From Planctomycetota bacterium (lineage in GTDB: Bacteria > Planctomycetota > Planctomycetia > Planctomycetales > Planctomycetaceae): 64,000 nt of DNA. Below are positions 3,630-27,605 of this stretch, piece after piece. A program made the position numbers and the translations under genes. The stretch covers positions 19,336 through 83,335 of the forward strand of contig JBPOIW010000061.1 of the NCBI GenBank assembly GCA_052034165.1, written 5' to 3'. How positions within the stretch are numbered: position 1 is the stretch's first letter; each line of letters starts with the position of its first letter. Under the pieces are notes generated by a model. The model had not been told where the DNA came from, did not search any database, and saw only the letters and a list, made by a program, of their open reading frames with translations.

Positions 3630-3721
3630 AATAATGGCTTCAATTCAATGCGGTATCTGAATAATGGTACTACTTTAGAGACCGAGTATCCAAACTTACG
3701 TCGAGTCAAATCTAAAGAGCG

Positions 3722-4546
3722 TCAAATGACTGCATACCCCGTTAGATCAATGAACTGTTTTATGTCCCTGACGGCAATGAGATTGTCGTATTGTGGTGGA
3801 TCAAACGCAGTATCCACTCTCGTAACGCTTTCAGTATCGACATGGCGTAACAAAGTGAATCCTGCAATAGCGATCATCTCAAGAAGTTCTTTTGTCGTGT
3901 AGCCAAACCATCCAAAATGAGTCGCACAGACTTCGAAATAGATGCACTCGGTTCGTCCTATGACTTCCGGGCCGCCCTCAAATACGAATTTTTCAAACCC
4001 TTCCACATCCACCTTCAGCAAAGCGATTGCGGGCGATCGCGGCACAAGATCATCCAGCCGGGCGACCTTGACTTCCAAGTCCCCGCCACCGACTCGATTC
4101 ATGTCATCACGACGGTCATCGGAAAAGCGAACCACACCCGCTTCGGCTCCGACAGCTGAATGGATCAATGTTACATTCTCAGCTTGGTTAATTTTGATGT
4201 TCTCTGTCAGAAACTCGAACGTCCGTGGATGAGCTTCAATCCCGGTCACGTTACCCTGATTGCCCACAATCAAGGACTCAACCAAGACGGTATCGCCTAT
4301 GTTCGCCCCTACGTCAATCACCGTGTCGCCAGCTTTCAGATAGCGGCGAAAGAAGGCGAGAGATTCCTCTCGAAAACTAGGATCTATCCAGAGTTGTGAC
4401 GACAAATTCGCCCGATGAAACCGAAGCCGATATCCATCCTGCTGAATCGATAGCCAGCGGCACAAGCCTGTCGCCATCAGAATCCTTGCGATGACAAAAC
4501 GGAATGGGTGCTTATGTTTTGAAAGAATCTGAAAGTATCTAAACAC
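3722..4546 (-). CDS. FkbM family methyltransferase
   Basis: VIDVGANIGDTVL glycine-rich motif, with the length and layout typical of FkbM-type SAM methyltransferases. Confidence 0.75.
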   Translation of the reverse strand: MFRYFQILSKHKHPFRFVIARILMATGLCRWLSIQQDGYRLRFHRANLSSQLWIDPSFREESLAFFRRYLKAGDTVIDVGANIGDTVLVESLIVGNQGNVTGIEAHPRTFEFLTENIKINQAENVTLIHSAVGAEAGVVRFSDDRRDDMNRVGGGDLEVKVARLDDLVPRSPAIALLKVDVEGFEKFVFEGGPEVIGRTECIYFEVCATHFGWFGYTTKELLEMIAIAGFTLLRHVDTESVTRVDTAFDPPQYDNLIAVRDIKQFIDLTGYAVI

Positions 4547-4556
4547 AGCGGCAGTA

Positions 4557-5534
4557 TTACCCAGCGGAAAGTAAGATTCGGGAAACGGCCTTTAGGCGAC
4601 CGACAGTCAGTGCAATCCACGGCTTGATCCGAAATCGACGAATTCCACCCAAAAGACTGCTGGTCGATTCGACGGTGAAATACAGGAGTACAAAGCCCAA
4701 CGAGGACATCGCGGAACGTCTCTGTGTACGTTTCATAACAAGATAGCGATTGTAAAGGTCATCTTCTGCGGCCACAGCCGGAGTAACACGGCCGGAAGGA
4801 GCGTGAAAATGTCCAAGCCGGGCAGTCGGACAAAAAACGATTCGCCCAATCTTTGACAACTTCAGCCCAAGATCGACATCTTCATTCATTGTGCAGCGAT
4901 GCAGGAAGAAGTCTGAAAATCCACCAACCTGATCATAGGCCGATCGGCGTATGAGGCTCATGCCAGCACCCAGCCACTCCATGCTTGTCGCGGACTTTTG
5001 AGATTCTGTAAATCCATACCGAAGAAGTGGGCCAATAACTCGTCCCTGCCATGCCCCTTCTGGAATTCGACAGAAGTAGCGCAGGTAAAAGCGCCAGGCA
5101 CGGGTAGGCATTGACCACGCCTGATTGTTGAATGTTGCACAGACTGCGACCGCAGAAGGCATCTCGTCTATCGCCCAAAGCATTTGCTCTAAGCAATCAG
5201 CTTCTAGGACCACATCGTCGTCCAGCAAAAGCAACATCTCGCCAAGAGACGCCTGGATCGCCATTCGACGTTGCCGAACAGCGTTGGGAACAGGAACTGC
5301 GATTCGACGAATCGGAATCTCACGATGCTGCCTACAAAAACATTCCAGTGATTCCTCTACGGCGGCATCGGCACTGCCATCGGCGACAATAATTTCGTCC
5401 GGCCGTCGAGATTGGGCAAAAAGCGATTCCAACAGATTGGCCAGCGACTCCGGCCGACCAATCGTTGGTACAATCACGACCACCTTGGCCATTGGCATAC
5501 CCTTACAGACTTGAGGTGAAGTCCACTCAATCAT
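4557..5534 (-). CDS. glycosyltransferase family 2
   Basis: VVIVPTIGRPESLANLLESL near the N-terminus and LLLLDDDVVLE (DxD). The start is possibly at the internal MPMAK/MAK (about 5492-5498). Confidence 0.75.
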   Translation of the reverse strand: MIEWTSPQVCKGMPMAKVVVIVPTIGRPESLANLLESLFAQSRRPDEIIVADGSADAAVEESLECFCRQHREIPIRRIAVPVPNAVRQRRMAIQASLGEMLLLLDDDVVLEADCLEQMLWAIDEMPSAVAVCATFNNQAWSMPTRAWRFYLRYFCRIPEGAWQGRVIGPLLRYGFTESQKSATSMEWLGAGMSLIRRSAYDQVGGFSDFFLHRCTMNEDVDLGLKLSKIGRIVFCPTARLGHFHAPSGRVTPAVAAEDDLYNRYLVMKRTQRRSAMSSLGFVLLYFTVESTSSLLGGIRRFRIKPWIALTVGRLKAVSRILLSAG

Positions 5535-12936: not shown

Positions 12937-13740
12937 TCAACAACGCTCCAGCTGAGATTTTTTCTTGCAAACGAAATAGATCGTCTCCGACGAGTGATAG
13001 TTCATCTTAAACTCGCAAACAATCTGTAAGTTCAGTAGCGACACAGCCTCGCAGAGTAAAGCCCGTGAAATTACTACTGGAAACGCATATTCGGGCGACT
13101 CTCTTCGCCATTTTTGTATAGTTGCAAAGCAAAACTCTGTATCTAAGAACACATCAAATACTAACATTCCCCCAGGCTTTAACACTCGAACGCACTCTTC
13201 CAGATATCCGATCGTCGTAATTAGCGGTAGATAGACAAACACGGCATGGGTATACACTACATCAACAGAGCAATCACAAGACTGAGCGAGCGATTTTCCA
13301 TCCGGAACATGAACGATAAGATTATGCGGCTCTTTGCCAAACGTTGCGCCGAGATAGTTCCGCCATCCACTTGACGTCTCGTAAAGCTCGATATTGCCAG
13401 GTCTCGCCAGCTCAACAACTCGCTCCAAGTACATTCCAGTACCTGGACCGATTTCTAAAATGCGGTCTACGTTTTGAATGGCACCTGCAGCGAGGAGTCG
13501 CTCAATTACAGCGTCACGACGCCTTCCGACTCCTCCAATATTGTTATTTTCCAAGTATTCGCAGAGTGTGACACCAGACTGCCGGGCTGCACTGACGACT
13601 CGCGCTGGGTTAAAGTATCCAAGCCCGATCGGCGTCAGACTAAAGCCAAACTGACGCAAGCAGGCAGTTGTCAATTTGGAGATGCACCTACGTAAAAAAA
13701 CACCGGCTTTCCGAATTAACATTCTGATGCAATTTCCCAT
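12937..13740 (-). CDS. class I SAM-dependent methyltransferase
   Basis: ILEIGPGTGMYLERV motif I and LKPGGMLVFDVF post-motif. It overlaps the wzt stop region. Confidence 0.7.
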   Translation of the reverse strand: MGNCIRMLIRKAGVFLRRCISKLTTACLRQFGFSLTPIGLGYFNPARVVSAARQSGVTLCEYLENNNIGGVGRRRDAVIERLLAAGAIQNVDRILEIGPGTGMYLERVVELARPGNIELYETSSGWRNYLGATFGKEPHNLIVHVPDGKSLAQSCDCSVDVVYTHAVFVYLPLITTIGYLEECVRVLKPGGMLVFDVFLDTEFCFATIQKWRRESPEYAFPVVISRALLCEAVSLLNLQIVCEFKMNYHSSETIYFVCKKKSQLERC

Positions 13741-14984
13741 TTTACATCCGGTCGGACAATCCCTGGAGTACTACCGGACCATCCAAGTTGTAATACCTTA
13801 TGCTTCACTTCAAACTGCAAAATGTCATCTTCATTTACCACGAAGACGGAATAATCTCGCGAGATCCGAATCGATATAGAGTGAGACCCGTCATTAAAAA
13901 TATAAGCCGGAATCAAAAAACTCACCCGGTGAGTTCCTGCAGTGTATTCACGAGCTTCGGTAAAAGAACAGAAGAGCAGCGTCCCGGTCAACGTGTAGAC
14001 GAACATTTCGATCGCCACTGACTTCAGGGGATTCTGGAACCGAGCCTGACAACTAACTTCTATTGGAAGTGACCCATCCAACTCAGATTCTCGATCACAC
14101 GCCGGGCGGTTCCATATTCGCGCTTGAAGAAGTGCCACCTCCATAAGTGTGTTAAGGTCTGTCTTTTCCCAATTATGGCGGAGCGCGCTTCGGGAACGTG
14201 TAAGATATTGATCGATAATCTGTGCACTTGGACCGACAGATCTCAACTGTCCTAGTTCCAAGAACAGGCAGGTTTCGCACAGGCTTTGAATAGCCGCCAT
14301 GTTATGACTAACAAAAAGAATTGTCCTACCACTGGAAGCAACATCCGTCATCTTTCCCAGACACTTCTTCTGAAACTCTGCATCTCCAACTGCTAGGACT
14401 TCATCAACGACAAGAATCTCAGGGTCCAAATGTGCAGCCACGGCAAATGCGAGCCGTACGTACATCCCGCTGCTGTAGCGTTTCACCGGAGTATCCAAGA
14501 ACTTTGCCACGCCCGCAAATTCAACAATCTCATCAAATTTGCGTTTAATCTCCGCTCGGCTCATCCCAAGAATCGCGCCGTTAAGAAAGATGTTCTCTCG
14601 ACCGGTCAACTCTGGATGAAAACCTGTCCCGACTTCCAGCAGACTGGCCACTCGGCCTCGCAGCGTCACTCGACCACTGGTTGGCTCCGTAATCCGGCTC
14701 AGGATCTTCAACAACGTACTCTTCCCAGCACCGTTGCGGCCGATAATTCCGACCACTTCGCCTTCATTCACCTCAAACGAAACGTCTTTGAGCGCCCAGA
14801 ATTCTTCCTCTGTAGACGATGGGCGGAGGGCGTTGGGCGTTAGGCGGGAAAACAGTTGGCGGGGGTAGGATAGCAATTCTTCACTGAGGCGACGGTAACC
14901 GCCAGCCCGGCCATTGCTCCCAGCTTGATGGGAGATGGTGTAGGACTTGGATAAGCCTTCAACGGAGATTATTGGGGAAGTCAT
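13716..14984 (-). CDS. wzt: polysaccharide/O-antigen ABC transporter ATP-binding protein with C-terminal extension
   Basis: Walker A GRNGAGKST, signature YSSGMYVRLAF and Walker B ILVVDEVL. An extra C-terminal domain of about 170 aa resembles the glycan-binding domain of Wzt proteins. Confidence 0.85.
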   Translation of the reverse strand: MTSPIISVEGLSKSYTISHQAGSNGRAGGYRRLSEELLSYPRQLFSRLTPNALRPSSTEEEFWALKDVSFEVNEGEVVGIIGRNGAGKSTLLKILSRITEPTSGRVTLRGRVASLLEVGTGFHPELTGRENIFLNGAILGMSRAEIKRKFDEIVEFAGVAKFLDTPVKRYSSGMYVRLAFAVAAHLDPEILVVDEVLAVGDAEFQKKCLGKMTDVASSGRTILFVSHNMAAIQSLCETCLFLELGQLRSVGPSAQIIDQYLTRSRSALRHNWEKTDLNTLMEVALLQARIWNRPACDRESELDGSLPIEVSCQARFQNPLKSVAIEMFVYTLTGTLLFCSFTEAREYTAGTHRVSFLIPAYIFNDGSHSISIRISRDYSVFVVNEDDILQFEVKHKVLQLGWSGSTPGIVRPDVKWEIASEC

Positions 14985-15080
14985 AGGGTTTACAGTTGGC
15001 AGTCGTCAGTTGGCAGTGGAGTACACGAAAACAAGTTGAGAATCATCAATTGGAAGTTGCCGTCTACTGCCAACTCTGCC
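14985..15080. repeat. word-repeat filler (CAGTTGGCAG family)
   Basis: CAGTTGGCAGTCGTCAGTTGGCAGTGG at the left end and the inverted word ACTGCCAACTCTGCC at the right end. It fills the gap between the wzt start and the 4HB stop. Confidence 0.7.
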
Positions 15081-15425
15081 TTACTTTCTGATGGATCGAA
15101 TTAGACCTTGGACCATTGCGGCAAGCTCTTTCGTTTCTTGATACCAAGCTTTACCAACTTCTTCCGTTATGAATCCAACTTTCATTCCAACAATCGTCTG
15201 TGTCCGCACTTCGCCACATGAGCCTCGGGCGTAGTCCAAAAACTTACATTGATCAGCAGGTGTGGATCGTTCCAGGCCTTCGGCGATATTCGAAGGTATG
15301 GACAAGCCTGCTCGTGTGATTTGGTCGCGAAACCCAAAGTCGCGAAGATCCCTGGTGTTGGCGTAGATAGCCGCACTCAGTTCAACCGATCGCTTCCATA
15401 CTTCTAAATCTTCGAAACCAGCCAT
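15081..15425 (-). CDS. four-helix-bundle protein (23S rRNA intervening-sequence protein / Avd-like family)
   Basis: MAGFEDLEVWKRSVELSAAIY...IPSNIAEGLERSTPADQCKFLDYARGSCGEVRTQ is the family signature (NIAEG ... GS..E). It is inserted between wzt and wzm. Confidence 0.85.
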   Translation of the reverse strand: MAGFEDLEVWKRSVELSAAIYANTRDLRDFGFRDQITRAGLSIPSNIAEGLERSTPADQCKFLDYARGSCGEVRTQTIVGMKVGFITEEVGKAWYQETKELAAMVQGLIRSIRK

Positions 15426-15501
15426 GTAAAAAAGAGTAGCAAATAATCAGTGATAAGTAGCCAGTAATCACGACTGAAAACTGATAGCTGCCAACGGACG
15501 A
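15426..15501. repeat. AT-rich word-repeat filler
   Basis: GTAGCAAATAATCAGTGATAAGTAGCCAGTAATCAC words, then TAGCTGCCAAC, the inverse of the GTTGGCAG word on the other side of the 4HB gene. Confidence 0.6.
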
Positions 15502-16326
15502 CTAAATGAGATCTGCAAACCGCTTTTCCATGCTGCGGAATTGTTTGATGCCGAGCCAGAGGAAGAACACTGTCACGCCGATGCTGGCGGCGAAGCCGGG
15601 CCAGTAGATGCTGGATTCGCCAAGGATGCACCAGCGAAAGCCATCGATCACGCCGACAACGGGATTCAGCGAATACAACAGACGCCATTTCTCTGGGATG
15701 ACGGAACTGCTGAACCCAACCGGGGAAACGTACAAGCCGAACTGCACCAGAAAGGGAATGATGTACCGAAAGTCGCGATACTTGACATTCAGGGCCGTGA
15801 TCCAGAGACTCGGGCCAAGGCTTGCAAAGAACGCAAGCAGCACAAAAAATGGCAGAAGCAGTACTTGCCATCCAGGCAGCCACTGATACCAAATCATCAT
15901 TGCCACAAGCAAAGAGAAGCTGATCAGAAAATCCACCAACGCGACAATGATAGTTGCTGCCGGGACGATCAGTCGCGGGAAATAGACTTTGCTGATCAAA
16001 TTCGCGTTTGAGATCAGACTGTTCGATGCGTCAGACAATGCTGTGGAGAAAAAAGTCCATGGCAGCATGCCCGCGAATACCAACAGGGCATATGGCGCGT
16101 TACCTTCGCTTGGTAGCTTCGCAACTTTTCCAAAAATAAACGTAAAAACAACCATCGTCAAGAATGGCCGAATAACTGCCCACGCGACGCCAATAACTGT
16201 TTGTTTGTACCGAACCGAGACGTCTCGCCAAGCCAGTACTTGAAAGAGTTCGCGGTACCGCCACAGGTCTCGCCAATAGTTCTTTTCAGCGCGACCAGCT
16301 TCAAGTATGAGTTCGTAGTTAGACAA
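15502..16326 (-). CDS. wzm: ABC-2 type polysaccharide export permease
   Basis: 274 aa, about 6 hydrophobic spans, with an ABC-2 permease N-terminus (YRELFQVLAWRDVSVRYKQTVIGVAWAVIRP). Confidence 0.85.
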   Translation of the reverse strand: MSNYELILEAGRAEKNYWRDLWRYRELFQVLAWRDVSVRYKQTVIGVAWAVIRPFLTMVVFTFIFGKVAKLPSEGNAPYALLVFAGMLPWTFFSTALSDASNSLISNANLISKVYFPRLIVPAATIIVALVDFLISFSLLVAMMIWYQWLPGWQVLLLPFFVLLAFFASLGPSLWITALNVKYRDFRYIIPFLVQFGLYVSPVGFSSSVIPEKWRLLYSLNPVVGVIDGFRWCILGESSIYWPGFAASIGVTVFFLWLGIKQFRSMEKRFADLI

Positions 16327-16374: not shown

Positions 16375-17136
16375 TCACCGATTTATGTGGGTACTTAGTA
16401 CAGAATGGCCAAGCCAACTTGAGCGAAATCGTTCACGCGACTCTCGATGCAACTCAACCGATGACGCAATCAAGCTTGGCGAGATCTCTCTCAGCCCTGG
16501 CACGAACACTTGACATTGCAGTGCTCGCTTGTGCGAAGAATCCGAAGCGGCGAATGAGATGATAGGCCGAAGTCGGTCTCCAACTTTGCTGAGGTAGTCG
16601 TCACCCCTTGCATTCAGACGCGGCAGATCAACTCCGGGCGCCGTCGCCCAAAGACCATCTTCAAAGAACACTGAGAATACAAGAATTGCCTGTTCTCCAG
16701 ATTCCATCTTCATCTTTGCGACAGCATACGTTCCACCTGTGTCCGAGTGCTGAAGCACTTCGCGGCTATCGATCGTCCATCCCAAACCCGTATAGCAATA
16801 GGTAAGCTCATGCCAATTTGTTTCACCGAGCTGATCAAACGACACGAGTGCCGTTGTTCTATCTTTCTGATACTGCCATTGATGCACCCACCAAAACTGC
16901 CCTTCTGGTAACTCTTCCACCGGTGGGGCCGGGATGAATTTGGTTCTCGTCCAGCCCGCCAGTTCCGCTGGCAATGCGTCTTCATTGAGTACCAAGTCAC
17001 CTCGGCTCGGGCCGGGCTTTTCACGTCCTGCCCCAGTCGGCCGAGCAAATGTTTGCAGCAGGCCCATGCCGATGATCACGGCGAAGAGACAGAGGGAGGT
17101 TTTGGCATTGGGCGCTAGGCGTTCGGCGGTGGGCAC
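16375..17136 (-). CDS. membrane-anchored hypothetical protein, possibly EpsI-like (exosortase-associated)
   Basis: N-terminal anchor SLCLFAVIIGMGLL and a WHELTYCYTGLGWTI block reminiscent of EpsI. It has a GTG start, and the first ~11 codons are encoded by GGCNTTGGGC word repeats. Confidence 0.5.
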   Translation of the reverse strand: MPTAERLAPNAKTSLCLFAVIIGMGLLQTFARPTGAGREKPGPSRGDLVLNEDALPAELAGWTRTKFIPAPPVEELPEGQFWWVHQWQYQKDRTTALVSFDQLGETNWHELTYCYTGLGWTIDSREVLQHSDTGGTYAVAKMKMESGEQAILVFSVFFEDGLWATAPGVDLPRLNARGDDYLSKVGDRLRPIISFAASDSSHKRALQCQVFVPGLREISPSLIASSVELHRESRERFRSSWLGHSVLSTHINR

Positions 17137-17792: not shown

Positions 17793-18344
17793 CTAAAACA
17801 GGTCTTTCAGGTTCAAGACGGCGGATTGCTGAAACGCTGGTGACAGGCTGTGTTCGACCGTGCAGACAAATCGTTTTCGATAATCATCGCCGTGGGGCTC
17901 ACGGTGCACGTGGATACAAGTGGCCTGCGAGTCCACAATCCAGTATTCCCTGATCCCGGCTTCCGCGTACAATCGACGTTTCGTTTCCAAATCGTACGCC
18001 AAACTACTGTAAGAGACTTCTATCGCCAGTTGCACGTCAATCGCCTGAGGGTGCCCGTTGCGGTATCTGGCCGCTCGAATCCACATGATGTCCGGCTCAG
18101 GACGTGATTCCAACTCTGGCAAATCCAGGCCCGTCTGAGATGTAATAAGCGTTTTCGCCGGATCTGCGTTCCTTACCGACCAGTTGTTGAGGTACGTAAT
18201 CAGATCATCATGGATCGGTCCGGCGGGATTCATTTCCAGAAGTTCTCCGCGAATGAGTTCAATCTTCCGTGGAATCGTATCGAATGCACCGACTCGTACC
18301 ATTTGGTCGTACTCGGCAAGGGATAAATGAAGGGTTGTGGGCAT
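17793..18344 (-). CDS. Uma2 family endonuclease (DUF820)
   Basis: ELIRGELLEMNPAGPIHDD...PEPDIMWI...LAIEVSYSSLAYDLETKRRLYAEAGIREYWIVD is the canonical Uma2/PD-(D/E)xK layout. Confidence 0.85.
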   Translation of the reverse strand: MPTTLHLSLAEYDQMVRVGAFDTIPRKIELIRGELLEMNPAGPIHDDLITYLNNWSVRNADPAKTLITSQTGLDLPELESRPEPDIMWIRAARYRNGHPQAIDVQLAIEVSYSSLAYDLETKRRLYAEAGIREYWIVDSQATCIHVHREPHGDDYRKRFVCTVEHSLSPAFQQSAVLNLKDLF

Positions 18345-18490
18345 GGGGATGGTTGTCAGTGTTCAGTGTTCAGTAGGCTTTGGGCTTTGGGCTTTGGGCT
18401 TTGGGGTGCGAAAACGGACTTTAGGCGTTAGGCGGGGAACAGTGTTCAGCTATTCCCTATTCGCTATTTACGAGTTACCAATTACCAAGC
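18345..18490. repeat. word-repeat array, family A
   Basis: CAGTGTTCAGTGTTCAG, GGCTTTGGGC x4, GGACTTTAGGCGTTAGGCGG and CAGTGTTCAGCTATTCCCTATTCGCTATTTACGAGTTACCAATTACC. Confidence 0.8.
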
Positions 18491-18732
18491 CGCGTGACGG
18501 TTGAAAAAGTGCCTGTCGCGGCGCAGACTTCGTTCCTGTCGGTGACCCACGGTGGCGGTCATCGAGGTGTATTTCGGGTGCTTTTTGACGCTTCGCACGG
18601 TAAAGAACAAACCGGCGATTGATGTAAGTGATTCGACGTAAGTTTTCTGAGCTCTGCAATTGTCCTAAACTCAATCAGGGGATTCACATCCCCCGCTCGC
18701 CGAGGCAATGCATCGACGATCAACTTACTCAT
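18468..18732 (-). pseudogene. possible frameshifted small ORF (unknown family)
   Basis: An ATG at 18730-18732 opens a 57-codon frame (MSKLIVDALPRRAGDVNPLIEFRTIAELRKL...) that overlaps the 68-aa ORF 18468..18674 in another frame. A 13-bp palindrome GTCACCTGGTGAC lies about 40 nt upstream. Confidence 0.25.
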
Positions 18733-18860
18733 CTGGAAGTTCCCTACCGTACTCTAAAAAATCAGTCGGTGTCACCTGGTGACCGCTGTCTTCATGTGAA
18801 TTTTGCACGACTGGTGAAACAAAATGCTGTGTGCGGGTATTGAGGGTGGTAAGGGGGCAA

Positions 18861-19022
18861 GTTGGGCTTTGGGCGTTGGGCTTTGGGCATCGCCTACCGA
18901 CAACTGGTAACTCGTAACTGGGGAAGAGCCCGGAGTTTCCCACTGAACACTTGTCTTCTCCTCCATTCCCCATTCCCTGCCTACCGCCCGTCGCCTACCG
19001 CCCATCGCCTACCGCCTACCCT
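18861..19022. repeat. word-repeat array, family A (partly inverted orientation)
   Basis: GGGCTTTGGGCGTTGGGCTTTGGGC, then inverted words CGCCTACCG, AACTGGTAACTCGTAACTGG, CTGAACACT and CATTCCCCATTCCC, then CCTACCGCC x4. The right part encodes the gmd C-terminal tail. Confidence 0.8.
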
Positions 19023-19982
19023 CACATCTTCATCGACCATGAGATGGATTAATTGCTCAAACGTGACGGATCGTTTCCAGTTGAGTTGCTGAATCGCTTT
19101 GCCGGGGTTGCCCAGTAGTTCGTGCGCGTCGGCGGGGCGTTTGAAGCGGTCGTCGATTTTTACATGGTCCTGCCAGTTCAAGCCGACATGCGAAAAGGCG
19201 GTTTCCAGCAAGTCGCGAATGGTATGCGATTCACCAGTGGCCAGCACATAGTCATCTGCCCTGCTCTGCTGCAGCATCAGCCACATGGCGTGGACGTAGT
19301 CTTTGGCAAAACCCCAGTCGCGAGCTGAATCCAGATCGCCGAGACTGACGGTTTTCTGTAAACCGGCTTTTATCTTTGCGGCGGCGAGTGTGACTTTGCG
19401 AGTGACAAAGTTTTCGCCGCGCCGAGGACTTTCATGGTTGTAACATATTGCGTTGCAGAAAAAGAGACCATGCGCTTCGCGATAGATTTTTGTCATCTGT
19501 GTCGCAAATGCTTTGGCACAACCGTAAGGAGAGTTGGGATTGATCGGTGTTGTTTCGTCCTGTGGGCTCACGGTCGGCGTACCGAAGATTTCGCGGCTGC
19601 TGGCGTGCAGGAACTTTGGCGGGCTTGAGAGATCTCGCAGAATTTCCATGATCCGAAGACTTCCCATTGCCGTCAGATCACAAGTGCTTTCCGGAATATC
19701 AAAACTCAGACCCACATGGGACTGACCTGCCAGATGATAGAACTCGGTCGGTTGCACCTTATTGATGATCCGGCGAATCGTGGTCGTGTCGGACAGATCG
19801 GCGTAATGCAGGAACAGACGCTTTTCGTAGACTCCTGCGTCACCATAAAACTGGTTCAGCCGCGAACGTTCCAGCGTACTGCTGCGACGGACGATGCCGT
19901 GAACTTCGTAGCCTTTTTCCAGCAACAGCTCGGTGAGATACGATCCGTCCTGACCTGTGATGCCAGTGATGAGGGCGAGCAT
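18981..19982 (-). CDS. gmd: GDP-mannose 4,6-dehydratase (short type), paralog 1
   Basis: [35 protein letters not shown], ...SPYGCAKAFA... and [15 protein letters not shown]. The last 14 residues VRVGGRRWAVGDGR are encoded by word repeats. Confidence 0.9.
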   Translation of the reverse strand: MLALITGITGQDGSYLTELLLEKGYEVHGIVRRSSTLERSRLNQFYGDAGVYEKRLFLHYADLSDTTTIRRIINKVQPTEFYHLAGQSHVGLSFDIPESTCDLTAMGSLRIMEILRDLSSPPKFLHASSREIFGTPTVSPQDETTPINPNSPYGCAKAFATQMTKIYREAHGLFFCNAICYNHESPRRGENFVTRKVTLAAAKIKAGLQKTVSLGDLDSARDWGFAKDYVHAMWLMLQQSRADDYVLATGESHTIRDLLETAFSHVGLNWQDHVKIDDRFKRPADAHELLGNPGKAIQQLNWKRSVTFEQLIHLMVDEDVRVGGRRWAVGDGR

Positions 19983-20089
19983 GGGGATTTCAGTTGGCTT
20001 TGGGCTTTAGGCTTTAGGCTTTAGGCTTTAGGCATTGGGCATTGGGCGGTTGGGCGGTTGGCAGTGGGAACAAAAACAGGCGTTGGGTG
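19983..20089. repeat. word-repeat array, family A
   Basis: CAGTTGGCTTTGGGC, GGCTTTAGGC x4 (period 8), GGCATTGGGC x2, GGCGGTTGGGCGGTTGGCAGTGG and GGCGTTGGGTGTTAGGGG. Confidence 0.85.
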
Positions 20090-20452
20090 TTAGGGGTTTG
20101 GCTTTCTGGACCGAATCAGGGCTCCGAGACTGGCTCCGAGCGGCTCGGTGCGTCCCAACAGTCCAGCAAGCTGTTCGTCGGTTAGGTATCCGATCTCCTT
20201 TGCAATCTCAAGCTGCGTTTCCAACTCAGCAAGCGATCCCAAGGCAATTCGGAAAAAACGAATTGAATCTTTGTCGCTGGATCTTGCATCGCCTTCAGCA
20301 ATGTTCGATGGAACGCTTACTGCAGCTCGACGCACTTGATCACGAAGCCCCCAGTCTTTGTTCCAAGGATCCATCCCTGTCATCTGATATACCTGAACAG
20401 CCAATGACTTCGACTGCTGCCAGACCATCAGTTTTCGATAACCGATACCCAT
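20090..20452 (-). CDS. four-helix-bundle protein (23S rRNA IVS protein / Avd-like family)
   Basis: MGIGYRKLMVWQQSKSLAVQVY...VPSNIAEGDARSSDKDSIRFFRIALGSLAELETQ. Confidence 0.85.
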   Translation of the reverse strand: MGIGYRKLMVWQQSKSLAVQVYQMTGMDPWNKDWGLRDQVRRAAVSVPSNIAEGDARSSDKDSIRFFRIALGSLAELETQLEIAKEIGYLTDEQLAGLLGRTEPLGASLGALIRSRKPNP

Positions 20453-20560
20453 CGTCCGCTACTAATTGGCTAATTTCTATCGCCTGACGCCTAAAGCCAG
20501 CGGTGGGGATTGGGCGTTGGGCATTGGGTGGAATCGCAGGTAAAAAACAGGTGCTTGGTG
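20453..20560. repeat. word-repeat array where family A meets family B
   Basis: The inverted word CGCCTGACGCCTAAAGCC, then GGGATTGGGCGTTGGGCATTGGGTG, followed immediately by GAATCGCAGGTAAAAAACAGGTGCTTGGTGCTTG. Confidence 0.8.
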
Positions 20561-21033: not shown

Positions 21034-21278
21034 ATGCTCGGTGCCTGGTCGAATCGCAAGGGAAATACACGTCGAATCGCAGGTGCTTAGTGCTTTGTGC
21101 TTGGTCGAAAACACAGTGAAAAAGCAGGTCAGAAACGCAGGTTGAAAACGCAGGTGCTTGGTGCTTGGCCAAAAATGCAGGTCGAGAAAACAGCTTAAAA
21201 CTCAGGTGCTTGGTTGAATCACAGGGTGAAAAACAGGCGCTTGGTTGAATCGCTGGTTCTGGGCAGATCTATGACAAG
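21034..21278. repeat. word-repeat array, family B
   Basis: GAATCGCAAGG, GAATCGCAGGTGCTTAGTGCTTTGTGCTTGGTC, GAAACGCAGGT, GAAAACGCAGGTGCTTGGTGCTTGG and CTCAGGTGCTTGGTTGAATC. Confidence 0.85.
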
Positions 21279-21923
21279 CTACTTCCGCTCTTTTTCCTGC
21301 TTTCGCTCGGCTTCAGCTTCGACCAACAGTTCAATGAACATCTGCTCATATTGAGAATGAACATTGCAAAGATGGTTGCGGATCTTTTCAATGGCAATTG
21401 GGCGCAGTGTCTTCAACACCTCAACCACATGCGCTCGATCCTTCTGCCGTCCGGAACTAATCTTCAGTTCCATCCAATACTCAATCGGGGCATAGTGAAG
21501 CCCGCTATCCAGCCCCATTTTTTTGGGACCCGGAATCACGGTAGGGGATGAGTCACGGGCCTTCCCGCCTTCCGGCACGACTTTGATTTCCACATCCTCG
21601 TGCGTCAGTGTGTGCCAGCCCAACTTTGATTCCCAGGCGACTTTCAGACCATAACGAGATGACGCTTCAATCAGAGACTGCAGGTTCCTGCGATCAATCG
21701 CAATGTCAATGTCCTGAGTGGCCGCCGGATAACCAAAATGAATGGCTCCCAAACCCCCGACAATCGCCAACGAAATGTGCTCCTTTTCAGCCAGACGCTG
21801 AAGATCCTCGAGTGCTCGTGTAAAGCGATTTTCTTCAGAGTTTATGTTCCGCACCGCATCTATACATTCAGAGCCTCGGCTAAGTGTTTCAAGAGCCGAC
21901 TTGATTGCAAAGGAAAGAGGCAT
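21279..21923 (-). CDS. nucleotidyltransferase-fold protein
   Basis: ISLAIVGGLGAIHFGYPAATQDIDIAI (G-G...D-x-D NTase motif) and C-terminal KISSGRQKDRAHVVEVL. The likely start is MPLSFAIK at 21923. Confidence 0.65.
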   Translation of the reverse strand: MPLSFAIKSALETLSRGSECIDAVRNINSEENRFTRALEDLQRLAEKEHISLAIVGGLGAIHFGYPAATQDIDIAIDRRNLQSLIEASSRYGLKVAWESKLGWHTLTHEDVEIKVVPEGGKARDSSPTVIPGPKKMGLDSGLHYAPIEYWMELKISSGRQKDRAHVVEVLKTLRPIAIEKIRNHLCNVHSQYEQMFIELLVEAEAERKQEKERK

Positions 21924-22169
21924 GTGCTTCGTGAAATCGCAGGGAAAAAGCAGGTTGAATCGCAGGTGCTTGGTGCTTGGTCCAAAAAAGCAGGTCAAAT
22001 CTCAAGTGTTTGGTGCTTGGTCGGAAACGCAGGTTGAATCACAAGTGCTTAGTGCTTGGTCAAGAAAACGGGTTAAATCGCAAGTCGATAAAACAGGTGC
22101 TTCGTGCTTGGTCAAAAAAAGCTGGCGACTGAGGACCAAGGACTAAGCACCAAGGACTAAGGACCGGGC
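21924..22169. repeat. word-repeat array, family B, ending in inverted words
   Basis: GAATCGCAGGTGCTTGGTGCTTGGTC-type words, then the inverted form GAGGACCAAGGACTAAGCACCAAGGACTAAGGACC (22128-22165). Confidence 0.85.
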
Positions 22170-22703
22170 TCAAATCCTGACAGGGAAGTCTGGACATAGA
22201 TTCGATTGAGTTGTCAAAACGTCCGGATGGTTTTTCGCATAGAATTCCATCCTGCCATCCTCACGACAATACCAGACTTCCTCCGCTCCGGCTTCAAAGT
22301 ACAGATGCTTCTTGCAGTCCATTTCAGCATCTGTATTGCTCGGCGAAATCACCTCAACACAAATCTCCGGGGCCGCTTCGAATGCGATTTGTCCTTTCAC
22401 TGAAGCAAATCGTTCTGAGGAGTACCATCCCACATCCGCAGCCCGCACACCGTCAAGTGTCGAAATGGGGCATTCCGGAAGCGCATGCCCCGCAAGGATA
22501 GATCGAAGCTGAAACGCAATTTCTCCCTGCAAACTACTGTGATGACCCGAAGGAGGAGGTGTCATTAGTAATGCGCCATAGCAGTTTGTTTCGACTCGAA
22601 ATGGCAGATCCGCCAGTGTTCGATCCGCCAGCACTTCCGCCCATCGCTGGCGATTTTGCCTCAGTGCCTCTTCTCGCGGAGGTAATTCGATAACAAGTTT
22701 CAT
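22170..22703 (-). CDS. Uma2 family endonuclease (DUF820)
   Basis: ...GALLMTPPPSGHHSSLQGEIAFQL...AADVGWYS...PEICVEVISPSNTDAEMDCKKHLYFEAGAEEVWY. Confidence 0.75.
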   Translation of the reverse strand: MKLVIELPPREEALRQNRQRWAEVLADRTLADLPFRVETNCYGALLMTPPPSGHHSSLQGEIAFQLRSILAGHALPECPISTLDGVRAADVGWYSSERFASVKGQIAFEAAPEICVEVISPSNTDAEMDCKKHLYFEAGAEEVWYCREDGRMEFYAKNHPDVLTTQSNLCPDFPVRI

Positions 22704-22941
22704 CAAACCATGCCTTGGGTGTTGGTGTGCTTCGCGGTGCTAGGTCAGAAACGCAGGTTGAATCGCAGGTCGAAAAAGCAGGTGCTTGGTGCTTGGTCGG
22801 AAACACAGTGAAAAAGCAGGTCAGAAACGCAGGTGCTTGGTTGAATCGCAAGGGAAACACAGGTCGAATCGCAGGTGCTTGGTGCGTGGTCGGAAACGCA
22901 GTGAAAAGCAGGTCAAATCGCAGGTGCTTGGGGACTAAGGA
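22704..22941. repeat. word-repeat array, family B, ending in inverted words
   Basis: GAAACGCAGGTTGAATCGCAGGTCGAAAAAGCAGGTGCTTGGTGCTTGGTC ... CAAATCGCAGGTGCTTGGGGACTAAGGACTAAGGAC. The 4HB stop codon lies inside the last word. Confidence 0.85.
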
Positions 22942-23310
22942 CTAAGGACTTCGCGATGCGAGATAGCGGATGAAGCCGCCGATCCTGGTGTGTGTTCTAG
23001 TGGCTTGTTCGTAGATGAGCTGAAACTGCTCGTCAGAGATGTAGTCCTGGTCAAGGGCCGCGTAGAGCTGACTTTTTACCTCGGCGCACGAACGCTGGGC
23101 GTATCGGAGGAACCGAATAAATTCTGCGTCACTTCCTCCGTCAAAACCTTCTGCAATATTGTGCATCGCTGAACCAGCCGCTCGTTGAATCTGATCCTTC
23201 AGGGCGAAGTCTCTGCTGAAATCCGGATTCTTCGTGGCCACATAAACCAAACGAGTCAATTCCCTTGCTAATTTCCAGCCTTCGATATCCTCGAATCGCT
23301 CGATTTTCAT
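22942..23310 (-). CDS. four-helix-bundle protein (23S rRNA IVS protein / Avd-like family)
   Basis: MKIERFEDIEGWKLARELTRLVY...AMHNIAEGFDGGSDAEFIRFLRYAQRSCAEVKSQ, ATG at 23308-23310. The track ORF to 23403 is an extension through repeats. Confidence 0.85.
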   Translation of the reverse strand: MKIERFEDIEGWKLARELTRLVYVATKNPDFSRDFALKDQIQRAAGSAMHNIAEGFDGGSDAEFIRFLRYAQRSCAEVKSQLYAALDQDYISDEQFQLIYEQATRTHTRIGGFIRYLASRSP

Positions 23311-23530
23311 AAACTCAAAGAAGCAGGTTGAAACACAGGTGCTTGGTCGGAAAACAGGTAAAAAAAGCAGGTGCTTAGTGCTTGGTGCTTGGTTGAATCG
23401 CAAGGGAACGGGTCAAAAAAAGCAGGTGCTTGGTGCTTGGTGGAAACGCAGATCGAGAAACCGGGGGCTTGGTGCTCGGTTGAATCGCCTTAAAAAACAA
23501 GGTGAAACGGAGGTTAAAAAAGCAGGGTGA
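23311..23530. repeat. word-repeat array, family B
   Basis: AAGCAGGTTGAAACACAGGTGCTTGGTCGG, AGCAGGTGCTTAGTGCTTGGTGCTTGGTTGAATCGCAAGG and AGCAGGTGCTTGGTGCTTGGTGGAAACGCAG, and so on. Confidence 0.85.
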
Positions 23531-23838
23531 ACGCAGATCTGGTCGGCGCGCACTTCGTTCTTCTGGGTGACAGGGACGAAGGCTGCACGCTGACGAACGT
23601 CTGAGCCACTATTGTTGGCAACCGCGATATGGCATTGTCAACAGTTTTCAGGTTCCATCAAATACTCCCAGAACCAGAAGAGTCAAACATTGTTCCGAAA
23701 CCTTCATGGAACCAATCGACGTTCAGGCAAACTGCGCCAGCTGGAGAGAACTTTGCAACCGCAGCCGTTCCAGTTTCAGGAATAATAACGATTGCGCAGC
23801 GTGCATCGCCGCACAGAGTGATGTGCTCCCGATCGCGG

Positions 23839-23920
23839 GCTCAGAAAAGGGGTCTGGAACCAATAGCCAAATGGCCCGAAGGGTGCTGCGCACTATTGGT
23901 TCCAGACCCGTTTTCTGAGC
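23839..23920. repeat. long palindromic hairpin (28-bp stem, 26-nt loop)
   Basis: GCTCAGAAAAGGGGTCTGGAACCAATAG (23839-23866) pairs with CTATTGGTTCCAGACCCGTTTTCTGAGC (23893-23920), with 1 mismatch in 28. Confidence 0.8.
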
Positions 23921-23926
23921 CTCTAG

Positions 23927-24335
23927 CTGGACAGCGCCATGTTCGGCTCCCTTACAAGCCCGAAGCGCTAGCGTGTGAACACTTTGCGACTCATTCCCTC
24001 GCTGGCGCTTTTTGAAGTTGCGTTATTCGACAACGGAGCAGATCAACAGGGCGAAAACGCAGGGAATTATCATAACCCGACGCGTCAGCGAGGGATTTTC
24101 CCGAACACTGCGTGAAACGCAAAAGCACGATCCCTCGCTAACGCAGCGGGTTGGGACAGTCGCAAATGCGCAACTTCAAAACGCGTCAGCGAGGAATTGA
24201 CGGAAACATTGATAAAACGCAAATGCTCTATCCCTCACTCACGTTTCGGGTTGGGATGGCGACAAATGCGCAACTTCAAAACTGGCGATTCGGGCTTGGA
24301 TTCTCAATGGTTTTCGTGAACATGGCGCTGTCCAG
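23927..24335. mobile_element. MITE family E1 copy A (TIR CTGGACAGCGCCATGT, CTAG target duplication), carrying a nested E2 insertion
   Basis: 16-bp perfect TIRs at 23927-23942 and 24320-24335, flanked by CTAG at 23923-23926 and 24336-39. The first ~85 nt and last ~55 nt match the reverse complement of copy B (49436-49564). Confidence 0.8.
24010..24281. mobile_element. MITE family E2 copy A (TIR TTTTGAAGTTGCG, 8-bp target duplication)
   Basis: TTTTGAAGTTGCG at 24010-24022 and GCGCAACTTCAAAA at 24268-24281, flanked by CTGGCGCT (24002-09) and CTGGCGAT (24282-89). The uninterrupted E1 copy has a single CTGGCGCT at this position. An internal ~100-nt unit is duplicated in tandem. Confidence 0.8.
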
Positions 24336-25310
24336 CTAGGCTTTCCGCTGCAAATCGGCATCGACCATCAATTTGATTAGCTCATCAAACTTCGTTGTGG
24401 GCTGCCAGTTGAGCTGCTGCCGAGCTTTCTCGGGATTGCCCAGCAATTCATGAGCATCTGCGGGGCGGTTAAATCGCTTGTCAACCTTCACATGGTCCTG
24501 CCAGTTCAAGCCAACATGCGAAAACGCGACTTGCAACAGTTCCCGAATCGTATGTGATTCGCCGGTGGCCAGCACATAATCATCCGCCTTGTCCTGCTGC
24601 AGCATCAGCCACATGGCGTGGACAAAATCTTTGGCATAACCCCAGTCACGGGCAGAATCCAAATCGCCGAGGCTGACGGTCTTCTGCAATCCGGCTTTAA
24701 TGCGCGCGGCGGCCAGTGTCACTTTGCGAGTCACAAAGTTTTCACCTCGCCGCGGGCTTTCATGGTTGTAACAGATCGCATTGCAGAAAAAGAGCCCGTG
24801 CGCTTCGCGATAAATCTTCGTCATCTGTGTGGCGAATGCCTTGGCACATCCGTACGGCGAATTCGGATTGATGGGGGTTGATTCATCCTGAGGGCTCACC
24901 ATCGGCGTCCCGAAGATCTCGCGACTGCTGGCATGCAGAAACTTCGGAGGACTCGGGAGATCTCGCAGGATTTCCATAATCCGGAGACTTCCCATCGCGG
25001 TCAGATCACAGGTACTTTCGGGGATCTCAAAACTAAGGCCCACGTGCGACTGACCCGCCAGATGATAAAACTCCGTGGGCTGCACTTTGTTGATAATGCG
25101 GCGGATGGTGGTCGTGTCTGAGAGATCCGCATAGTGCAGGAACAATTTCTTCTCATAGACGTTGTCGTCGCCATAGAACGCCTGCAGACGCGCTCGCTCC
25201 AGCGTACTACTGCGGCGCACGATGCCGTGAACTTCGTAGCCTTTTTCAAGCAGAAGTGCGGTCAGGTAGGAACCGTCCTGACCTGTGATTCCAGTGATGA
25301 GAGCGATCAT
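24336..25310 (-). CDS. gmd: GDP-mannose 4,6-dehydratase (short type), paralog 2
   Basis: [15 protein letters not shown] start (ATG 25308-25310; the track ORF to 25487 reads through repeats). About 35 substitutions versus paralog 1 over ~325 aligned residues by manual alignment. Confidence 0.9.
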   Translation of the reverse strand: MIALITGITGQDGSYLTALLLEKGYEVHGIVRRSSTLERARLQAFYGDDNVYEKKLFLHYADLSDTTTIRRIINKVQPTEFYHLAGQSHVGLSFEIPESTCDLTAMGSLRIMEILRDLPSPPKFLHASSREIFGTPMVSPQDESTPINPNSPYGCAKAFATQMTKIYREAHGLFFCNAICYNHESPRRGENFVTRKVTLAAARIKAGLQKTVSLGDLDSARDWGYAKDFVHAMWLMLQQDKADDYVLATGESHTIRELLQVAFSHVGLNWQDHVKVDKRFNRPADAHELLGNPEKARQQLNWQPTTKFDELIKLMVDADLQRKA

Positions 25311-25490
25311 AGGGAAAAGGCCTGTGCTTGGTTGAATCGCCGGTGCCTGGTGCTGGGTCAAATCGCAAGCAAATCTCAGGTGGTTCGTTGAACCAAGCAC
25401 CTGTTTTCGACCAAGAACCTGCGACTCAACCAAGCACCTGCGATTAGACGGGCGCTTAAACCAAGCACCTGCTGTTTCAACCTGCAACTA
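25311..25490. repeat. word-repeat array, family B (both orientations)
   Basis: CCTGTGCTTGGTTGAATCGC..., then inverted words AACCAAGCACCTG x3 and GACCAAGAACCTGCGACTC. It contains the left copy of a 68-bp direct repeat. Confidence 0.85.
25370..25437. repeat. 68-bp direct repeat, left copy
   Basis: CAAATCTCAGGTGGTTCGTTGAACCAAGCACCTGTTTTCGACCAAGAACCTGCGACTCAACCAAGCAC is identical to 26191-26258 except for one C/T difference. Confidence 0.85.
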
Positions 25491-26078
25491 CTATCCTTCT
25501 GGATCATCGATAAGTTGCTGCAGGCGCTCGGCGTGAAGGCGCGGAAGTTGGGACAACCAACTGGAATCGATTAAGCCGACACTGAGCATATCCAGCAAGT
25601 GCACCTGATCTTTGCGGCGAAATGAATTGAGCTTCATCTTTAGCAGTGCCAGCAAGTTGACCACATCATACTCATCCGCCGACTCCACTTCCGTGACGTC
25701 GGCTGAAGGCACCGCATATTCAGGCCGGACCTTCTCTGCGGCATATAGCAAATGCACGCCATCACGTGGGCTTCCGTCGGGGCCGTCGATGAAGCAATCG
25801 ACTCCCATCAGTTCATGATGGATAAACCCGACTGATTCGAGGGCCTGCTTCACTCGATCGAAATCAGTTCGCCGCACAAGTATGTCGACGTCCTGCGTGT
25901 TGCGCACAGCCGCCCGATCCACTCGAGCAACCCAAGCGGCCACCGCATTGCCTCCGGCCACCGCATAGGGTATCTGCGCGGCCTTCAGCGCCGCCGTCGC
26001 GCGCAAGGCTCGTTCACGGACGGCTTCCACAGCGTCAATCATCCTTTGCCACGAAAAAGGTTTTAGTTCAATGGCCAT
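25491..26078 (-). CDS. nucleotidyltransferase-fold protein
   Basis: IPYAVAGGNAVAAWVARVDRAAVRNTQDVDILV (NTase G-G...D-x-D) and C-terminal LKMKLNSFRRKDQVHLLDML, the same architecture as 21279..21923. Confidence 0.7.
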   Translation of the reverse strand: MAIELKPFSWQRMIDAVEAVRERALRATAALKAAQIPYAVAGGNAVAAWVARVDRAAVRNTQDVDILVRRTDFDRVKQALESVGFIHHELMGVDCFIDGPDGSPRDGVHLLYAAEKVRPEYAVPSADVTEVESADEYDVVNLLALLKMKLNSFRRKDQVHLLDMLSVGLIDSSWLSQLPRLHAERLQQLIDDPEG

Positions 26079-26294
26079 CGTTTGAATCGCAGGTTGAATC
26101 GCAGGTGCTTGGTGCTTGGTGCTTGGTCAAAACGCAGGGGGGAAACGCGGGTCGAAAAAGCAGTCAAAGTACAAGTGCTTGGTGCTTCGTCAAATCTCAG
26201 GTGGTTCGTTGAACCAAGCACCTGTTTTCGACCAAGAACCTGCGACTCAATCAAGCACCAAGGACCAAGCACTAATAACCAAACACAAATCGGC
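26079..26294. repeat. word-repeat array, family B (both orientations)
   Basis: GAATCGCAGGTTGAATCGCAGGTGCTTGGTGCTTGGTGCTTGGTC..., then the right copy of the 68-bp direct repeat, then CACCAAGGACCAAGCAC. Confidence 0.85.
26191..26258. repeat. 68-bp direct repeat, right copy
   Basis: See 25370-25437. The two copies bracket the NTase gene 25491..26078. Confidence 0.85.
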
Positions 26295-27508: not shown

Positions 27509-27605
27509 GGGAGAGATCTGGTTCGCGATATTGAGTGGAGAAAAGAAAGCAGTGGAACTGCGGAACGTATTGAACACTGACCGGCCGTGCCTGCGAAAGA
27601 AAAAC

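Follow-up and report, generated by a model that had tools for sequence, protein, structure and literature searches.

The interval described here lies in a 64,000-nt stretch of DNA from a Planctomycetota bacterium (assembly GCA_052034165.1, contig JBPOIW010000061.1), which is referred to as the window. The two genes of a polysaccharide exporter of the ATP-binding cassette (ABC) type, wzm and wzt, are separated there by 517 bp (14985-15501) that hold a small four-helix-bundle (4HB) gene, and all three genes are on the minus strand. The upstream neighbour wzm (15502-16326), encoding the ABC-2 permease, matched the Pfam family ABC2_membrane (E 2.7e-22) and a Wzm/RfbD-like NCBIfam model, the 4HB gene (15081-15425) encodes a protein of 114 aa that matched PF05635, TIGR02436 and the subfamily model NF008912, and the downstream neighbour wzt (13716-14984), encoding the ATPase, matched ABC_tran (E 1.8e-24) with a TagH/Wzt-type model as its best NCBIfam hit. 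An ABC-2 permease gene followed by a co-oriented TagH/Wzt-type ATPase gene inside a glycan cluster is the arrangement of a Wzm/Wzt operon. Alignment to homologues showed that both exporter genes are full length, which bears out the original prediction that a 4HB gene in the same orientation sits in this operon without disrupting either neighbour. The first 38 kb of the window are a single long minus-strand polysaccharide cluster with genes for glycosyltransferases, gmd, an epimerase, Wzy_C and a WecA-like protein, and rpoA, secY and ribosomal-protein genes at 55-64 kb indicate that the window is chromosomal. The lineage was found in wastewater and sludge metagenomes; its closest named RpoA relatives belong to metagenome-assembled genomes of Planctomycetaceae (~90%) and to Planctomicrobium (79-80%).

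The 4HB protein is a member of the protein family that is found in the intervening sequences (IVSs) of 23S rRNA. It scored well above the cut-offs of PF05635 (E 5.4e-31, 107.4 bits against 33.8), TIGR02436 'four helix bundle protein' (E 2.1e-30, 105.2 bits against 24) and NF008912 (E 1.9e-46, 156.9 bits against 124), and the only relative in the PDB that was found by sequence was XCC0516 (2GSC; phmmer E 2.4e-14), whose structure is a homopentameric ring. An AlphaFold2 model of the monomer (pLDDT 97.4) has helices at residues 8-24, 30-52, 56-83 and 88-113, and in a Foldseek comparison the closest structures were 2GSC (TM 0.88) and BT_0352 (2RLD; TM 0.83), followed by Avd (4DWL; TM 0.79), the accessory protein of diversity-generating retroelements (DGRs), to which the sequence identity is 10-14%. 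Because 2GSC and 2RLD are closer in structure, Avd is more distant and no reverse transcriptase was found among the window's open reading frames (ORFs) of at least 150 aa, the protein is IVS-type and not Avd proper, so that only the second half of the 'Avd/IVS-type' label of the original prediction can be kept. The protein is near neutral (pI 6.3), and the dN/dS ratio of its gene (0.06-0.26) indicates purifying selection. As many as 11,336 clusters at 50% identity match it; none of the three 4HB proteins of the window had a PADLOC or PHROGs match, and we know of no function for the 4HB/'S23p' family outside the Avd of DGRs.

The flanks of the 4HB gene carry GTTGGCAG/CTGCCAAC words well above chance. 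The words that had been quoted in the original prediction were found at their positions, i.e., CAGTTGGCAGTCGTCAGTTGGCAG at 14993-15016, ACTGCCAACTCTGCC at 15066-15080 and TAGCTGCCAAC at 15485-15495, but the sides had to be corrected: ACTGCCAACTCTGCC lies between the 4HB gene and wzt together with the CAGTTGGCAG array, and only TAGCTGCCAAC is on the wzm side. The word CAGTTGGCAG occurs twice against 0.13 copies expected, a number that none of 100 shuffles reached, and four of the eight copies of GTTGGCAG in the 64 kb are inside the 517-bp insert. On the mRNA, the 5' flank begins directly at the wzm stop codon with UAG-UCGUC-C-GUUGGCAG, and continues as a U-rich 4HB leader of degenerate 7-nt units (CAGUUUU CAGUCGU ...; 15426-15487), which is the least conserved part in comparison with the nearest relative and includes indels. 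Right after the 4HB stop codon stands a proximal sense word, GGCAGAGUUGGCAGU (15066-15080), which is found as the same word at the same position in two Stieleria genomes and is a second sequence with which the distal antisense words can pair. These distal words, ACUGCCAACUGACG ACUGCCAACUG (14993-15016), follow after an inner spacer (15017-15065; 91-94% identical to the nearest relative), form a tandem array and stop 8 nt ahead of the wzt AUG. Tandem Repeats Finder reported the array as a period-7 repeat in forward orientation (14993-15017) ending near a start codon, and similar arrays were present in at least ten related loci.

The outermost copies of these words are complementary. A 16-bp stem with one mismatch (15504-15488 with 15016-15000) encloses the whole insert and runs from the wzm stop codon to 15 nt before the wzt start; it was present in both the minimum-free-energy and the centroid fold of the interval. 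Its 5' arm, UAGUCGUC-C-GUUGGCAG on the mRNA (15488-15504), consists of the wzm stop codon (UAG, 15502-15504) and the sense word behind it, and its 3' arm is the part of the antisense array at 15000-15016. The repeat finder independently returned the same pair (I24) as 16-nt arms (15001-15016 and 15488-15503) that are 94% complementary and 471 nt apart. A match of 14 out of 15 between flanks of this size is expected by chance with a probability of ~2e-4, and a flank-to-flank duplex of the same strength was obtained in only one of 300 dinucleotide shuffles. The words and their pairing across the insert thus exceed chance, and the complementary termini are predicted to close the element in the manner of an IVS stem.

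Comparison of wzm-wzt junctions was based on 80 loci that were retrieved by Wzt similarity from species-representative genomes and 80 that were retrieved by Wzm similarity from metagenomes. The two genes are normally adjacent, as had been assumed, since most gaps in the ~140 junctions were 0-50 nt. The closest Wzm relatives (80-82% identity) have ordinary spacers of 20-45 nt, which are the empty sites that an inserted module implies. A situation in which all relatives carry the gene, with flanks that lack the words and with no empty sites, is thus not what was found. This comparison relies on metagenomic Wzm relatives because the species-representative genomes held no close relative, the best Wzt being 51% identical. 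No empty-site allele was found among the contigs of the source population in four sequencing runs, though such contigs drop rare variants and break at arrays. Breaks in the short-read assemblies of this population coincide with the word arrays (14969-15104 in runs X2-X4, 14980 in run X5). A relative from a different sludge metagenome, ~95% identical in the wzt start region, has another sequence ahead of wzt, with GGTGCTT-type words, and may represent a different allele of this junction.

A co-oriented 4HB gene was present at 10-11 of the ~140 wzm-wzt junctions (~8%), spread over at least seven phyla, in Verrucomicrobiia, Lentisphaeria, Paceibacterota, Chloroflexia, Methylomirabilota and unbinned metagenome contigs. 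In the other junctions of the same loci, it was found in three of ~800 (~0.4%), which corresponds to a ~20-fold enrichment between wzm and wzt (Fisher p 1.4e-7); in five further loci the 4HB gene stands immediately upstream of wzm. All 25 of the 4HB genes in the DNA that was fetched are co-oriented with their operon. The junction genes belong to different subfamilies that share 30-49% identity, which signifies independent acquisitions. A few wzm-wzt junctions hold toxin-antitoxin-like pairs or an NYN gene in place of a 4HB gene; at least two of them, with the toxin-antitoxin-like pairs of L001 and L092, are also flanked by 7-nt arrays (GGAGATA... and TTTCAGC...).

Each lineage has words of its own, for example GAGAAAT / CTCATTG, AAATGCTGAAA / TTTCAGCATTT, GAAAGGTGAAAG / CTTTCACCTTTC, GACGGAGGAC / GTCCTCCGTC, TGTCCATAAAGTCA with its complement (which includes the wzt ATG), GGGTGGCGGGTAAC / ACCCGCCACCCGTTAC and AGGTTTTGGTTT / AAACCAAAACCT, and in each of them purine-rich copies follow the upstream stop codon and complementary copies reach up to the downstream start. 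Complementarity was retained with different words in six lineages. When nine 5' flanks were paired with nine 3' flanks in a matrix, the cognate pair was the strongest in every independent lineage, and the four planctomycete loci cross-paired because they share words. An exact inverted repeat of at least 10 nt between the 110-nt flanks was found for 9 of the 25 4HB genes compared with 27 of 1030 other ORFs (p 3e-8), and the shuffle-normalised z-scores of the flank duplexes were also lower for the 4HB genes than for the control genes (p 4.5e-4). These two measures were adopted because the raw duplex energies (p 0.10) are confounded by G+C content. In the loci whose flank duplexes were scored against dinucleotide shuffles, the median distance from the upstream stop codon to the beginning of the 5' arm was ~0 nt, and that from the end of the 3' arm to the downstream start was ~5 nt.

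Within the Planctomycetota, homologues of the 4HB protein at 72-93% identity are numerous in both genomes and metagenomes, and the words move with the gene. In Stieleria maiorica and S. neptunia (L085 and L086), a 4HB gene of the same subfamily lies between Bac_transf and gmd, and its flanks have the same words in the same layout: sense copies stand behind the stop codons of both the upstream gene and the 4HB gene, and two to three ACTGCCAACTGAC units abut the next start codon. In four other lineages, a 4HB protein 71-80% identical to that of the window follows a Wzm that is only 22-38% identical, and the words are retained; in one of them (L171) the two words have changed as a pair (GTCGGCAG/CTGCCGAC). 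Taken over all of these cases, the GTTGGCAG/CTGCCAAC words of the subfamily accompany 4HB genes of 71-93% amino acid identity into unrelated neighbourhoods, and in every pair compared the 4HB proteins (69-93% identity) had diverged less than the ATPase domains of the neighbouring Wzt (35-75%). A 14-nt unit is repeated 2-16 times before the downstream start in L085, L086, L175, L177 and L180; in L175, ~16 tandem CTGCCAACTGA(C/A)TA units fill the 230 nt (4355-4585) from the 4HB stop codon to the wzt ATG. The L171-L174 contigs also have a duplicated remnant upstream of wzm-4HB (960-1525 compared with 3029-4351), in which the first 148 nt and the last 156 nt of wzm (~92% identity) are joined with the middle deleted, and which continues with a partial 4HB ORF of 69 aa and a Uma2 gene.

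The nearest relative of the locus, a metagenome contig (L087), has the order wzm-4HB-wzt at the same site and differs from the window in having a Wzt_C-type wzt and other downstream genes. The 4HB genes of the two are 94.5% identical in nucleotides, with a proportion of synonymous differences (pS) of 0.12 and a Nei-Gojobori (NG) dS of 0.14, compared with 77% identity and a saturated NG dS of ~2.9 for wzm as a whole. Within wzm, pS falls from 0.80 in codons 1-230 to 0.35 in the last 44 codons, and it is again 0.35 in the first 20 codons of wzt. Correspondingly, in a sliding window the identity was ~90-98% from ~15640 to 14940 on a background of ~60-78%. Such low divergence of the cassette relative to its neighbours signifies a recent horizontal exchange and, together with the transfer of the words into different gene neighbourhoods, it agrees with the claim that the unit is a self-contained module. 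To judge from the alignment, the cassette would have been brought in by recombination through the conserved 3' end of wzm and 5' end of wzt, an explanation that applies to this closest case only.

Based on these results, we consider the 517-bp interval to be probably a horizontally exchanged and co-transcribed cassette, built like an IVS but placed in an mRNA operon, whose bracketing stem spares its neighbours. That it is a mobile and self-contained cassette is the part in which we have high confidence; that the stem is what protects the expression of the neighbours is proposed only tentatively. What was observed is the protein family, the architecture, the kept complementarity, the empty sites, the recurrence at the junction, the purifying selection and an age younger than that of the neighbours. 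The cassette would consist of an IVS-family 4HB gene with its own flanking arrays of 7-nt words, the G-rich sense copies following the upstream stop codon and the C-rich reverse-complement copies reaching the downstream start. A single transcript would run through wzm, the 4HB gene and wzt, and in it the two arrays may pair and loop out the 4HB cistron. The stop codon of wzm and the region where wzt translation starts would thereby come to lie together at the foot of a single stem, as in the 23S rRNA IVSs that bear a 4HB ORF. Ribosomes that terminate at wzm could then melt the stem and expose the wzt start, which would amount to translational coupling at a distance; alternatively, RNase III might cut the stem and release the insert, as it does in rRNA IVSs. 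Both routes would fit the evidence, and that the stem makes the insert harmless is something we infer.

Transcript data are consistent with read-through. Three metatranscriptomes of the same study gave four 151-nt contigs over 4 kb, one of which covers 15350-15499, i.e., the 5' flank and the start of the 4HB gene; a compost contig labelled as transcriptomic ends at 14976 and is not interpretable. A promoter or terminator of the 4HB gene itself was considered and rejected, as the search returned one promoter-like and one terminator-like match, which were both inside wzm and fewer than in shuffled sequences. The original prediction had named an own, unrelated promoter and terminator as evidence against a module, and no consensus one was found in the flanks. 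No Rfam or rRNA match was obtained at 13.5-27 kb apart from sub-threshold noise of miRNA models.

Several observations weigh against this interpretation. The folding energy of the whole insert was no better than that of shuffled sequences (z -0.2), which is expected of a coding loop, and for RNase III 16 bp with a mismatch make a short stem. The cassette at 22942-23310 of the window and those of L110, L158 and L034 have no complementary flanks, only direct arrays or none, and the bracket is thus common but not obligatory. The RNA coverage amounts to a few reads that could include DNA, and the scan, which returned neither a sigma-70-like promoter nor an intrinsic terminator for the flanks, does not cover planctomycete promoters. 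As for mobility, no recombinase, transposase, integrase or reverse transcriptase was found in the 64-kb window and there is no target-site duplication, the sequences outside the arms being TTGGC (14996-15000) and AAATG (15504-15508). The middle of the 5' flank is diverged or replaced inside the otherwise young block, from which it follows that the arrays turn over faster than the rest and that the history involved more than one simple transfer. Finally, the subfamily is linked to wzm and wzt even when these are non-orthologous, which could reflect a function in export and not selfish spread.

The junction is one instance of an architecture that recurs at 17-26 kb of the window, as had been predicted, and the bracket was found there around other small genes as well. 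The 4HB gene at 20090-20452, the second in the window, shares 39% identity with the first and has words of its own: within 20010-20498, GGCTTTAGGC repeats stand before the gmd start and their complement GCCTAAAGCC upstream, forming 32-nt arms that are 75% complementary and 425 nt apart. A third 4HB gene (22942-23310) has long GGTGCTT/AGCAGGT arrays on both sides (22700-23500) in direct orientation only and is not bracketed. The nucleotidyltransferase gene NTP_transf_5 (25491-26078) is bracketed (25410-26138) by inverted arrays of 22-32 nt, ACCAAGCACCTGCGA... / ...TCGCAGGTGCTTGGT, and its flank pairing was the strongest among the 1030 control ORFs, which means that the architecture is not restricted to 4HB cargo. 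Further pairs of inverted arrays bracket an unannotated ORF of 239 aa (arrays 21082-22151, ORF 21279-21998) and two small ORFs (arrays 18457-18928, ORFs 18468-18973); none of these three ORFs had a Pfam or NCBIfam match, and the 239-aa ORF also had none in PADLOC or PHROGs. Two divergent genes for Uma2-family endonucleases lie among the cassettes (17793-18344 and 22170-22706; 31% identical over 93 aligned residues), and both matched the PADLOC candidate defence family PDC-S03.

Three paralogues of GDP-mannose 4,6-dehydratase are located in the same part of the window (18981-19982, 24336-25487 and 26498-27577). The first and second share 89% identity and stand on either side of the cassette-rich segment at 20-24 kb, and the third is 50% identical; the N-terminal extension that is listed for the second is translated array sequence. 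A 29-nt hairpin with 97% complementarity (23838-23866 / 23893-23921) and an adjoining perfect 22-nt inverted repeat (23923-23944 / 24318-24339) lie at 23838-24339, within the only stretch of the cluster with a plus-strand ORF, and are unrelated to the heptamer words. A 35-nt unit in three copies (30235-30339) and an 81-nt unit in two copies (30826-30991) share the core GCTGAGCTCGTGAGAGCTCAG in opposite orientation and occupy the gap between a glycosyltransferase gene and a tyrosine-kinase-like gene. Directly upstream of wzm, an ORF of only 253 aa (16375-17136) matched the exosortase U C-terminal domain (NF033780, E 1.5e-29). Inside wzt, Tandem Repeats Finder detected a period-7 array on the minus strand (CGCCUAA CGCCCAA CGCCCUC ...; 14820-14846) within the variable N-terminal loop, where gain or loss of one unit would shift the reading frame, and in L074 (Methylomirabilota) and L017 (Verrucomicrobiia) the words of the respective cassette are also found inside the same loop.

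A function of the 4HB protein in glycan export would account for its position without selfish spread. It could be an accessory protein or a regulator of ABC-dependent export which, for example, binds the mRNA arrays and tunes wzt translation or acts on the exporter, its place being selected for that function. Of the ~10 contexts in which the hb1 subfamily occurs, 7 have it right before wzt or behind wzm even though these Wzm and Wzt are non-orthologous, each protein subfamily keeps its own words, and the ~20-fold enrichment at this junction and the strong purifying selection would both be expected. However, ~90% of the related wzm-wzt pairs, those of close relatives included, have no 4HB gene, the same subfamily is also found between Bac_transf and gmd and in arrays of HNH and PIN genes, and the 4HB genes at the junction come from several distant subfamilies. 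Moreover, toxin-antitoxin or NYN genes fill the same junction elsewhere and the 4HB protein is near neutral. We know of no exporter component with the 4HB fold, which also counts against this explanation, and we regard it as unlikely.

Alternatively, the unit could be a DNA-level mobile element, similar to a miniature inverted-repeat transposable element (MITE) or to an integron cassette, with the word arrays as terminal repeats or recombination sites of an enzyme encoded elsewhere and with incidental pairing in RNA. In favour of this are the terminal inverted repeats that bracket the unit, the clear horizontal exchange and a cargo (4HB, Uma2, nucleotidyltransferase, toxin-antitoxin, HNH) that resembles cassette arrays. 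As in integrons, the genes are small, promoterless and co-oriented, each with an imperfect inverted repeat whose sequence varies with its structure kept, and the cargo is rich in toxin-antitoxin and small proteins of no assigned role. However, the words differ among the cassettes of the same window (GTTGGCAG, GGCTTTA and GGTGCTT), which argues against a single sequence-specific enzyme, and neither an integrase nor a transposase is encoded in the 64 kb. In every lineage, the arms abut the stop and start codons and show strand asymmetry with respect to the direction of transcription, as expected for a constraint at the RNA level. A MITE was rejected because of the missing target-site duplication and the differing words. 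An integron gene cassette was rejected as well, there being no integrase or tyrosine recombinase in the window and both the polarity and the position of the repeat being wrong: the order GTTGGCA...GCCAAC is the reverse of attC (RYYYAAC...GTTRRRY), i.e., of R''/R', and is the same on both strands, GTTGGCA and TGCCAAC each deviate by inspection from the consensus at one position, and the main repeat brackets the 4HB ORF and does not follow it on the 3' side as attC does. Unlike in integrons, the arms are tandem 7-mers and the host is a functional biosynthetic operon. On balance, a DNA-level element appears rather improbable.

The heptamer arrays might instead be simple-sequence contingency repeats, in which slippage in the wzt leader and inside wzt switches the exporter and the 4HB gene is a passenger. 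Relatives do differ in how often the 14-nt unit is repeated ahead of the downstream start (from 2 to ~16 copies), the frame-shifting period-7 array lies inside the wzt codons, and other phyla have heptamers shortly before start codons for which an effect on translation has been proposed (PMC4679880). On the other hand, the arrays of the window are imperfect (77-80% matches), which would make slippage inefficient, and the arrays did not vary in length among four metagenome runs from this population, although contig data are weak in this respect. The complementary 5' arrays and the link to the 4HB gene are left unexplained. As the sole explanation, contingency repeats are therefore very unlikely; phase variation by slippage may come on top of another mechanism. 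The proposal that the 4HB protein is the Avd of a DGR deserves almost no credence, as it is favoured only by the related four-helix-bundle fold (4DWL, 8UBE) and the shared Pfam family and is opposed by the low identity, the closer match to 2GSC and 2RLD, the lack of a reverse transcriptase among the window's ORFs of at least 150 aa and a protein that is not basic, whereas Avd, which acts as part of a ribonucleoprotein with structured RNA, is strongly basic. Template and variable repeats were not noted either, although no search aimed at them was made, which the lack of a reverse transcriptase renders moot.

The preferred interpretation, a mobile IVS-like cassette in an mRNA operon, can be placed beside two systems that have been described previously. 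IVSs with an S23p/4HB ORF are known from the 23S rRNA of Leptospira, Coxiella, Xanthomonas and Brucella, and that of Coxiella, a substrate of RNase III, measures 428 nt, bears an S23p ORF and is closed by a terminal stem of 28 bp (PMC4990558). The cassette shares with them the protein family in the loop, the size (~500 nt including the arms), the complementary termini that form a closing stem, the sporadic distribution with horizontal transfer and a host transcript whose two halves must both stay functional. It differs in that the host is a protein-coding operon and not helix 9, 25 or 45 of 23S rRNA, the arms are shorter (16 bp) and made of 7-nt word arrays, and the base of the stem is a stop codon and a translation start in place of an rRNA helix; excision by RNase III is known for the IVSs only.

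The second system are the TAACTGA heptamers, which are intergenic direct repeats upstream of start codons in Beggiatoaceae, Cyanobacteria and Bacteroidetes (MacGregor 2015, PMC4679880). Both types are period-7 forward arrays whose ends lie only a few nt from the start codon that follows; they vary in copy number, are found in part inside ORFs and belong to lineages using few Shine-Dalgarno sites. The unit CTGCCAACTGACGA contains CAACTGA, which matches TAACTGA in six of seven positions, and is thus not an exact copy of it. In contrast to the present arrays, which have complementary partners across an inserted gene and vary by lineage, the repeats in that paper are essentially direct only, with no link to 4HB genes or cassettes (PMC4679880).

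The protein family, the rRNA IVSs and the heptamer repeats before start codons are thus already known. Neither bracketed cassettes with IVS-family genes in mRNA operons, nor a preference of such genes for the wzm-wzt junction, nor lineage-specific complementary arrays were found to be described in the searchable literature, which does not cover subscription journals and the family notes of databases. At its most general, the interpretation would be that 4HB/IVS elements form a single widespread class, structured 'inter-cistronic introns' that are mobile in any long-lived transcript, whether rRNA or operon, since the bracketing stem would leave the host RNA functional. The Avd-like 4HB protein would be the element's own factor, recognising its cognate arrays and promoting spread, for example through an RNA intermediate and a reverse transcriptase of the host, or in that it protects or processes the RNA after excision. 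IVSs of 23S rRNA would then be the special case and the operon cassettes the common one; we offer this as a speculation that is probably wrong in this broad form.

IVSs of 23S rRNA have been known since 1990, and to our knowledge their origin and mobility have been open since their discovery. If IVS-type units also live between the cistrons of operons, they would offer a tractable setting, with arms that can be mutated and two neighbours ready for reporters, and cultured Stieleria strains carry the same cassette. For annotation, such cassettes explain odd gaps, N- and C-terminal extensions of ORFs and assembly breaks in polysaccharide loci. If the interpretation is true, heptamer arrays upstream of start codons would gain a structural partner, and the cassette would show how bacteria tolerate selfish inserts inside operons that are sensitive to stoichiometry.

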